Source of the DNA: Perna viridis
Taxonomy: Eukaryota
NCBI GenBank assembly: GCA_037379345.1
Contig: CM074515.1
Coordinates: 3,038,001-3,102,000, forward strand
Direction of reading: 5' to 3'
DNA: 64,000 nucleotides
Position numbers and translations under genes: made by a program. The first letter of the stretch is position 1. Every line of letters begins with the position of its first letter. Positions 22,401-25,400 of the stretch are shown in pieces. The notes beneath the pieces were generated by a model that was not told the origin of the DNA, searched no databases, and saw nothing but the letters and a program-made list of their open reading frames with translations.

Positions 22401-25400
22401 AAAAAGATGCTTTATGAAATAGAGGAACAACAATTTGGGCATGAAACAGGTGATATCCTGGTACCTTCAAAATAATGTAGCATTTCAGATCTTGTATACT
22501 GTTATTACTTGTAGATATATTTTTGTTGCAGTATTTATATATATATATATAATCAATGCACTGCTTTTATCTTGTATTTATACATGTATATGAAAAACAT
22601 TATTATCTTTATATCAAATAGTTATCTATAGTAAACACTTTATTTTCAAATGGAAGCTAAACTACTGATAATCCCAGATTGTACTGTACAACATGTTAAT
22701 CCATAGATGTAAACAATTCCAATTGAAGATAATAATGTGTTTCAATAAAAGATTCTGCCATGCTTAAGTTATTGCACTCATTTTTTTCAAGTGTATATCA
22801 ATGTATATTGCATGTAGCTTATGGGCTTTACCACTGTTGTTATTAATGTATGCATGCATTTAATGTTAAGCATTTTATGTAACACAGAAAAAAAAATGAT
22901 TTTGCATAATTTAACTGTATGGATCTCTATGATATAGTATCACATGAGATGATATAGTATCACATGAGAGAATTGATTGGGGAGAAGTATGACCCTTACT
23001 CTGTTGGGAATTAGGGGCAAAAGTAAAAATAAAAACTTTTTTTGTTTCCATACAATAACTTTAGTAATAGTGTATGAATCTCTAGGAAAGTACCACAAAG
23101 GAGGATTGATTATGGCAGCCATGACCCTAACCTGTTGGGAATGGGGATAAAAAGGGAAAAATAAACAGGTTTTTTTTTTCAGACAATAACATGAGTGGAA
23201 GTGTATAGATTTCCATGTAACTGCACTGAAGTGTTCCATGTCACAAAGTAAGGTTTGGACTAAAATTGATAAAGAAGTTGAAATTCAAATCCTTTTGAAA
23301 TTTTAAGACCTACTTATAAAACAAAAAGTGATGATATAGTACATGGAAGGATAAATTAAGAAATTGTTGCTTGCATTTAATCTTTGATATTGGGTCTTAA
23401 CAGGGTATTATCAGAATTTTATGGTGTGTCAAACATTTGATTACAATCCAAATTCAGAGCTGTATCAAGTTTAAATGACATTTCTATACTTTCCCCAACT
23501 GTTCAGGTTTTGTCTATGTTATAGTACTCTATTCCTCCCTGCTAAGCATTTTATTACACTTCAAGGGGATTCCAAAATTTTGCAATGCTTTTCTTACTAT
23601 TTTACAACAATTAACCTTCAAGTCAGTTCTAAAATCTGAATGTAAAGCATTTGTCCTGAGCTGTAGACTTTCTATGCTGTTTCAGGAAACTATGAACAAC
23701 AGGTCCATGGGATTAGCCAGAGTGAGGACGACTAGTTATTCGTAACATGTCTTACAATCCAATTATTTTTGCCTTTCAGTATCATAGGGCTGTATATTTC
23801 CTTCATCTTGTTGATTGGCCGAATCTTACGACTGAGCACATCAGGATTGATCGAGAGGATAACATACAACGAGTTACCATACATAGACAATGTTCTACAA
23901 CTCTGTTTAGACTTGTACTTGGTTAGAGAGATGGGAGAGTTTAGATTGGAAGAAGATATGTATGCCAAACTAATATTCTTCTACAAGTCAGCAGAAACAC
24001 GAATCAAATGGACACGATTACCCAACCGACTGATTATAACTGATGCTAAAAAGAATGATTAAAACATTGTACTATTGTACACCATTGTAGATAGTTATTT
24101 AATGCTGGCAGCTTATCAAGGAGAATAGATCAAGCTTGGCTTGCTCAGTTCTTATTTAACTTACTTATTTGAGATGATTATGTACTTGTGTTATGCAATG
24201 ATATGTTTCTAATAAGAACTATTTCAGTTCAGAGAAAACAGCATGACAACCATTTGTTATTGATTCTGCTGTCAGATTATAAAATAATTGAAGAATCTTT
24301 GTTAAATTAATTTTGTACAAATATGTCACATCCAGAGTACTTATCTACTTTTTAGATTTATCTTGTAACATAGAATTTTCTATATAATGAACAGGTAGAA
24401 TTTTATGCAATGTGAGACTTATATGAATGGTTGATACACAAGTAGAACATCAAAATAACAATTTAATTATTATTTAACATGATCAAGTATGAACTACGTG
24501 TAGTAAACATCAGTGTAGACGTTAATTGTATATTCTGTATGAAGTATAATATTATTTAAGCGTAACATGAATTACTTTCTAGTACAAATGGCTATACTAG
24601 TACATTCTTGCCAAATCATTAGTTTGTAAGTGAAATTCTGGTGAATTTGATTAAAACAGATTTTGAAAATATGTGAGTGGCAAACAATTCTAGAGGGATG
24701 GTATCAAGGGGAGATAAACCAATTAACGCTTATACAATTAGAGATTTGGGAGGTTGGGAATGACAGCCCTATTTTGTCTTTTTTTTCAAAATTTCCAATG
24801 TTTGACTTACCTCACTACTGGTATATATACAAAGGTTTTTAATATTACCTCCTCTTTTTTATGAATGTTGTCTTGTTTATTTGTATAAATGATTTGAATA
24901 CATGGTAGTATTTGCACTTACAAACATTTTCACTTCTAAAAAATTTGCCACAATCTAAATTTTGATTGGTGTAAAAAGTTTTTATTTTTATGGATAATGA
25001 ATGAATTTTATTGACACTAGTTCAATTGCTCAAAATGCTTTGATTTGTTTGTCAATTTTCTTTGCTTTGTTATTTAGATTTTCAGGTTCAGAAAACATTC
25101 ATTAATAATGTAATTTTAACCTTTTCATTTGATTGTATTGTATAAATATATACATTGTAATGTTTTGTGTATGTTCAGTTAGTGTTCTATTTTTATCTGT
25201 GTATTGTAGTGTAGTTATTGGGATTTTAGTAACCTAGCTATGTCATGTGCAATATACATGTTATTTTTACATTTAATGCTTCTTCATAATGTCTCTGGTT
25301 GTCAGTTGAACTAGTAATTAATTTGAAATCTCTTGAAAAATTTTAAAGATCTATAAAGTGGCTTGAAATGCTTGACATTAAAGGGAAGTTATTAAATGCG

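Follow-up and report, generated by a model that had tools for sequence, protein, structure and literature searches.

Tandem exclusive exons are a known device: in AMPA receptors (flip/flop) and in CaV1.2 (exons 8/8a), a gating or pore-lining segment is exchanged between tandem homologous exons. The exons concerned there are short cassettes inside the gene, whereas in the Perna viridis Piezo gene considered here 80 residues with the entire inner helix and C-terminal domain would be exchanged via competing 3' acceptors, each alternative carrying its own stop. Among Piezo channels, splicing tunes conductance or kinetics in mammalian PIEZO1.1 (in PMC12951647) and in the PIEZO2 splice variants (PMC8924262), as is proposed here; those variants remove or alter the lateral plug or intracellular loops, and in neither are the inner helix and the C-terminal domain duplicated. 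The C. elegans pezo-1 isoforms G, K and L likewise come from one invertebrate Piezo gene and differ in inactivation, but according to the available part of that account they differ in the N-terminal blade, each keeping the canonical pore module, whereas here the pore module is exchanged (PMC12951647). Vertebrate PIEZO1 and PIEZO2 also provide two pore variants per animal, but as whole-gene duplicates, both lying on the B side of the tree described below or closer to B in the alignment; molluscs put two pores on one blade. In oysters, alternative oxidase A/B is a bivalve gene diversified through an alternatively spliced duplicated exon, encoding a different protein (PMC5589949, from the accessible portion).

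The described Piezo isoforms considered here alter blade, plug or intracellular loops; here, two pore modules are attached to an identical body of 2,300 residues, offering a natural chimera pair for finding the inner-helix and portal residues that set inactivation and selectivity. A search of the open-access literature, judged mostly from titles and abstract starts, found none that deals with alternative exons for the Piezo pore. Mollusc Piezo was called functionally uncharacterised in a 2024 bivalve paper, in whose text the strings 'isoform' and 'splic' are absent (PMC11682238). The A and B isoforms sit in the databases without comment. From the sequence comparisons below, the two exons are probably a real, regulated pair differing in gating or permeation.

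The two terminal exons and their transcripts

The window, meaning the whole 64,000-nucleotide stretch analysed, includes the 3' part of a Piezo gene, which lies on the + strand. THU9, anchor, outer-helix and cap exons lie upstream in order and on the same strand (14573-19362), their joints being spliced in the contigs, and sequence hallmarks of Piezo are present, including E2133, R2482 and hydrophobic residues at 2475/2476. From a common donor GT at 19363, exons A and B each complete a phase-2 Gly codon. Exon A follows an acceptor AG at 23778-79 with an open frame at 23781-24062 (93 aa and TAA), exon B an AG at 25543-44 with an open frame at 25546-25797 (83 aa and TGA), and each AG is pyrimidine-rich. 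Both exons pass Pfam PF12166 (A 108 bits, B 135 bits, cut-off 26.9) and share 58% DNA identity over 237 bases. Several hallmarks of tandem exclusive exons are thereby seen, namely homologous copies in the same phase with an acceptor for each, and one copy is translatable per mRNA, the exon A stop lying upstream of exon B. No AATAAA lies in the stretch from the A stop to the B acceptor, which by itself is not significant (P about 0.11). The coordinates are collected in Table 1.

Table 1. Features of the 3' part of the Piezo gene, in window positions
Feature	Position	Strand	Evidence
Anchor-domain exon common to both isoforms	15945..16094	+	E2133 and E2172 equivalents kept
Penultimate coding exon, common to both forms, end of cap domain	19167..19362	+	Phase-2 donor GG/GTAAG; RNA-type contigs cover 19166-19361 in 4/4 runs
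Intron excised in the A form	19363..23779	+	Joint of 19361 with 23779 in the contig pieces of 4/4 runs, ambiguous by one base
Coding part of exon A, closed by TAA: inner helix with C-terminal domain (2466-2545 of mouse Piezo1), then a conserved 10-aa tail	23780..24062	+	Splicing in contigs; pteriomorph bivalves conserve the tail
3' UTR of the A transcript, exon B inside it unspliced	24063..27108	+	Contig ends 26738 to 27108; AATAAA at 26795 and 26994
Coding part of exon B, with an AG acceptor of its own and closed by TGA: inner helix and C-terminal domain of canonical type	25545..25797	+	Predicted minor form; in other molluscs, models of this gene with a B end

Expression was read from assembled contigs of 4 runs from 4 studies, out of 24 listed; the contigs are presumed to be RNA and show the gene's GT..AG joints. 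In every run, the penultimate exon and A are spliced together in a single contig, which then continues difference-free through B to 26738-27108, and the contig depth over exon B is that of this single A contig. Because the A joint and the unspliced run-through recur in 4/4 runs, the assembled transcript is the A form, whose 3' UTR includes B. Exon A is the expressed form in this species; the preliminary description had named an unexpressed A isoform as a case that would undo its reading, and A is spliced in all four runs. Among the joints listed, none to exon B was found in the 4 runs, in contigs that lose rare forms and from which isoform ratios, strand and the exact poly(A) site are unreadable. 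Proteins of transcript type that reach the C-terminus all end in A (6/6 mytilid-like; 5/5 oyster, in two clusters). A model of alternative last exons, each with a poly(A) site of its own, was considered and rejected, since the A contigs run through B in 4/4 runs; the layout works like competing 3' acceptors sharing one 3' end.

Several minor features accompany the locus. At window 26317, within the 3' UTR, one contig in 3/4 runs has an identical loose end, and at 17315 a T>C difference in 2/4 runs turns TTG into CTG, a synonymous change that is probably an allele. At 20832-22275 and 26969-27300, dispersed repeats show in a very high summed depth of the contigs and in numerous loose ends; one of these repeats begins just beyond the 3' end of the A transcript. 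The intron holds an AT repeat at 19369-19419, and tandem repeats were noted by eye in Piezo introns at about 9740-10650, 14100-14530, 14990-15240 and 20520-20840. On the - strand, an uninterrupted open frame at window 34924-41889 encodes 2321 aa in which CxxC...HxxxH motifs are numerous, by eye apparently a multi-C2H2 zinc-finger protein.

Distribution and age of the pair

One gene with both ends is found in the database models of seven other molluscs, six of them RefSeq, with A in the majority among the members listed; for B, these are annotated models. RefSeq ends were counted over the members listed (at most 15 per cluster) of ten RefSeq-led clusters, 5 fragments being without an end. The A/B counts among listed bivalve members are 14/1 in C. 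virginica and in Magallana, 9/1 in Ostrea, 7/1 in Mya, 6/1 in Ruditapes and 15/0 in Mytilus; among listed gastropod members they are 6/1 in Haliotis, 3/2 in Patella (two species), 12/0 in Biomphalaria and 8/0 in Physella. The preliminary description overlooked A as the majority form, rather than the canonical-looking B. Mollusc Piezo mostly uses a non-canonical pore, so extrapolation from vertebrate Piezo may mislead. All complete ends listed for Biomphalaria (12/12) and Physella (8/8) are A, so B may be dispensable there; in these pulmonate clusters (P0041, P0042) B may be lost or unannotated. In the Mya arenaria cluster P0033, isoforms on one contig are numbered in two separate series, which suggests a duplicated Piezo locus or a duplication in the assembly.

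In Mytilus edulis one contig carries both an A and a B model, their accessions consecutive; the M. edulis A is 88% identical to the A described here and the M. edulis B 84% identical to this B. In 7/7 A/B pairs the protein upstream of the two ends is identical over 1530-2326 residues. In locus L001 exon A precedes B at a distance of 1.9 kb, and the models of Mya and Solemya have the two joined in the order A, B. Over nine matched species, identity is 81% for A-A and 71% for B-B, and A and B within a species are 49-63% identical. When window 19301-27300 was compared with L001 for conserved non-coding sequence, only exon A (7e-18) and short matches with E of 0.01 or worse were returned, and no splice-control element.

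The age of the pair was assessed with a tree of 76 rows and 84 columns, Strigamia being left out; with so few columns its bootstrap is not fully settled. A 95/99 branch separates 27/27 mollusc A ends from 11/11 B ends, and the 11 B ends group with deuterostome and arthropod Piezos. The AU test, on 50 of the 76 rows, rejects a duplication limited to mytilids (p 0.002), oysters (p 0.002) or bivalves (p 0.011). This branch and these rejections indicate that the pair is older than the bivalve-gastropod split, and an old, conserved A/B pair is supported by the sequence comparison. A mollusc-only origin gave p 0.002, a confounded value, for rows lacking species names may be molluscs. The nemertean Tubulanus (8/8 isoforms) falls on the A side of the tree, on a long branch, and from this placement an origin older than molluscs is possible; the named sequences compared hold no cephalopod, chiton or annelid Piezos. 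At loci L018, L020, L021, L024, L028, L029 and L032, one B-type exon directly follows the penultimate exon, with no second copy in the available DNA, so single-exon invertebrate Piezos exist and are usable as controls. A-side or intermediate pore ends outside the named bivalves and gastropods were also seen in the P0317 cluster (Tubulanus), in L009 at 7233-7485, and in P0189, P0191, P0245, P0251 and P0264; L009, a spliced contig, is equally close to the Piezos of Solemya, Patella and Haliotis, at about 52% identity.

Residues that separate the two pore modules

Exons A and B align with mouse Piezo1 gap-free from I2466 (phmmer against 5z10: A 6e-21, B 9e-26), the residue given as the inner helix start in the available part of bioRxiv 2023.09.28.559900. 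With this alignment to orthologues, the approximate mouse numbering of the preliminary description becomes exact, and its residue assignments were recovered. Exon A has L at L2475, L at V2476 and I at F2480, with LSTS for GFFS, T-Y-N-E for M2493-F-E-E and KSAE for RSPE; exon B has the L-V...F gate, VFFS, G2487, IMFQE, RSPD and KITK. Both keep the Arg at R2482 and have Gly at E2487 and a neutral residue at E2495.

To place these substitutions, 13 bivalve A, 13 gastropod A and 11 B ends were set against 146 background cores, obtained from 213 distinct cores after removal of gappy rows, rows with the A-helix signature and 26 listed ids; the background includes vertebrates and is enriched for A-likeness. 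KWTR had been taken as special to A. It is present in A, which does have a tail 10 aa longer, but it is the common state, lost in this B, with W2542 in 114 of the 146 cores. The further suggestion that the A changes might be common in ordinary Piezos holds for LL (L at 2476 in 34/146, and LL at the gate of fly Piezo 9w7x) and for G2487, the commonest background residue (90/146), and fails for the rest: M2493T and P2536A occur in 0/146, F2485T in 4/146, F2480I in 6/146 and F2484S in 7/146.

Seven columns are disjoint between the 26 A and the 11 B ends: 2473 (F), 2481, 2484 (S/A), 2485 (T/I/L), 2489, 2516 (M) and 2544. At 2476, L occurs in 23/26 A and V in 11/11 B. Position 2493 is T, S or A in 13/13 bivalve A, while gastropod A ends have M or I there and keep M-F; position 2536 is A or S in 12/13 bivalve A and P in all gastropod A. 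Judged by these alignments, T-Y and A2536 are bivalve-A traits and no defining mark of the A class as a whole. This species alone has K2534, which is not an assembly error, because the A piece is without any differing letter in the RNA-type contigs of 4/4 runs. The A tail follows LPxxL(I/V)xTDxKKN(D) across pteriomorph bivalves. The most consistent A/B contrasts, overlooked in the preliminary description, are 2473, 2481, 2484-85, 2489 and 2516 together with the portal charge.

The lateral portals hold S2491, E2495 and E2496, and nine lysines placed there make the channel anion-selective, as stated in the available parts of PMC7815867 and bioRxiv 2024.08.23.609388. E2495 is replaced by R or K in 18/26 A and is basic in 0/11 B. 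The summed charge of 2491/2495/2496, a pattern noticed first and counted afterwards, is 0 in 25/26 A, -1 or -2 in 11/11 B and -1 or less in 131/146 background cores. It is higher in A than in B in 8/9 matched species, via differing residues, with a tie in M. edulis; with position 2490 added, the contrast is a tie in 4/9. By this count of aligned residues, A appears to be without one net negative charge at the cytoplasmic portal.

For the gate and the constrictions, mouse mutants provide the reference, in the portion of PMC6349400 available. V2476L has a tau of about 2.6 ms (n=7) against 10.4 ms in wild type (n=6), approximately 4-fold faster; these are means computed here from supplement file 5 of that paper. 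F2480S does not significantly slow inactivation, and the gate still works after hydrophobic swaps. MF/TT slows inactivation 1.6-2.7-fold, PE/GG reduces current and speeds deactivation, MF/QQ is without effect in Piezo2, and the effects of the MF and PE constrictions are described as only moderate (PMC6349400, same portion). The preliminary claim that these positions govern inactivation, constriction and selectivity is borne out in part, by the roughly 4-fold effect of V2476L on tau, but not for F2480, where no significant slowing occurs, and at the MF and PE sites the effects are moderate. V2476L and MF-to-polar changes shift inactivation in opposite directions (faster versus slower), and mouse mutant effects may not transfer to mollusc Piezo, as MF/QQ in Piezo2 illustrates.

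Proposed mechanism, rival explanations and other pairs

In the favoured reading, the gene's tandem last exons, an ancient duplication, each encode the pore-lining inner helix and the C-terminal domain; which 3' splice site is used likely decides which of these pore modules an otherwise identical channel carries. Use of the proximal acceptor gives the assembled mRNA, in which the A stop leaves B in the 3' UTR, the step seen in the contigs; use of the distal acceptor would yield B as the less common form, its pore canonical and its 3' end shared with A. Judging from the mouse mutants, the L-L gate of A is predicted to inactivate faster than the L-V gate of B, and the less acidic A portal (2491/2495/2496) to lower cation and Ca2+ selectivity. 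Bivalve T-Y and A/S2536 would add smaller effects, on inactivation and deactivation.

One objection, that the second exon arose through misassembly or by local duplication in recent times, can be dismissed for practical purposes: A and B DNA are 58% identical, single RNA-type contigs span both, and the 95/99 tree branch and the AU tests refute recent origins. A second account, in which A has taken over as the working exon and B survives as a remnant rarely or never spliced in this lineage, fits the missing B joint in 4/4 runs, the 15/15 listed Mytilus RefSeq members ending in A, the greater variability of B (71% versus 81%), the loss of the W of KWT in this B and the two pulmonate clusters without B among listed members. 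It is nonetheless improbable, because the frame, acceptor and length of exon B are intact in 11 named mollusc rows, 37/67 of the B codons differing from L001 are synonymous, and B isoforms are annotated in M. edulis and six RefSeq genomes.

A less remote alternative accepts that both exons are used and places the selected difference in C-terminal partners, trafficking or mRNA control, through the 10-aa tail, anchor contacts and a 3-kb versus 1-kb 3' UTR, the pores being alike and the gate changes tolerated drift. The conservation of the A tail in pteriomorph bivalves and the roughly 3 kb of UTR on the A mRNA agree with it, as do the gate's survival of hydrophobic swaps, the LL of fly Piezo and the moderate effects at the MF and PE sites. 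It appears rather unlikely all the same: the disjoint columns concentrate in the inner helix and portal (2473, 2481, 2484, 2485, 2489), V2476L by itself shifts tau about 4-fold, and bivalve and gastropod A tails differ while the helix signature is kept. A regulated pair differing in gating or permeation is the reading preferred over these three.

Pore-exon pairs beyond molluscs are known here from gene sequence or models. In two insect-type Piezo loci, L050 (3996-4116, 4195-4315) and L051 (3977-4097, 4176-4296), there are two tandem 121-nt cassette exons, each encoding residues 2466-2505 including the MF site, with AG and CAG/GT ends and a common last exon following; they are likely mutually exclusive, and including both would shift the frame. 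The Timema gene models P0188 and P0207 hold the same cassette pair, and the first and second L050/L051 copies each group with their Timema counterparts (SH-aLRT 83 and 91). A common origin of the insect and mollusc pairs gave an AU p of 0.66, on 41 columns. A wider and tentative extension of the favoured reading, possible though short of even odds, is an old, recurring exchange of invertebrate pores by splicing: a pre-mollusc spiralian A would be the main bivalve and snail channel, with a fast L-L gate and a neutral portal making it weakly selective or chloride-permeable, B would serve particular cells, mixed A/B trimers would be intermediate, and insects would do likewise with their 121-nt cassettes. 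In the bdelloid rotifer Didymodactylos carnosus, model P0192 ends in a tandem pair of pore-exon copies, which group with each other (95) and suggest a separate duplication.
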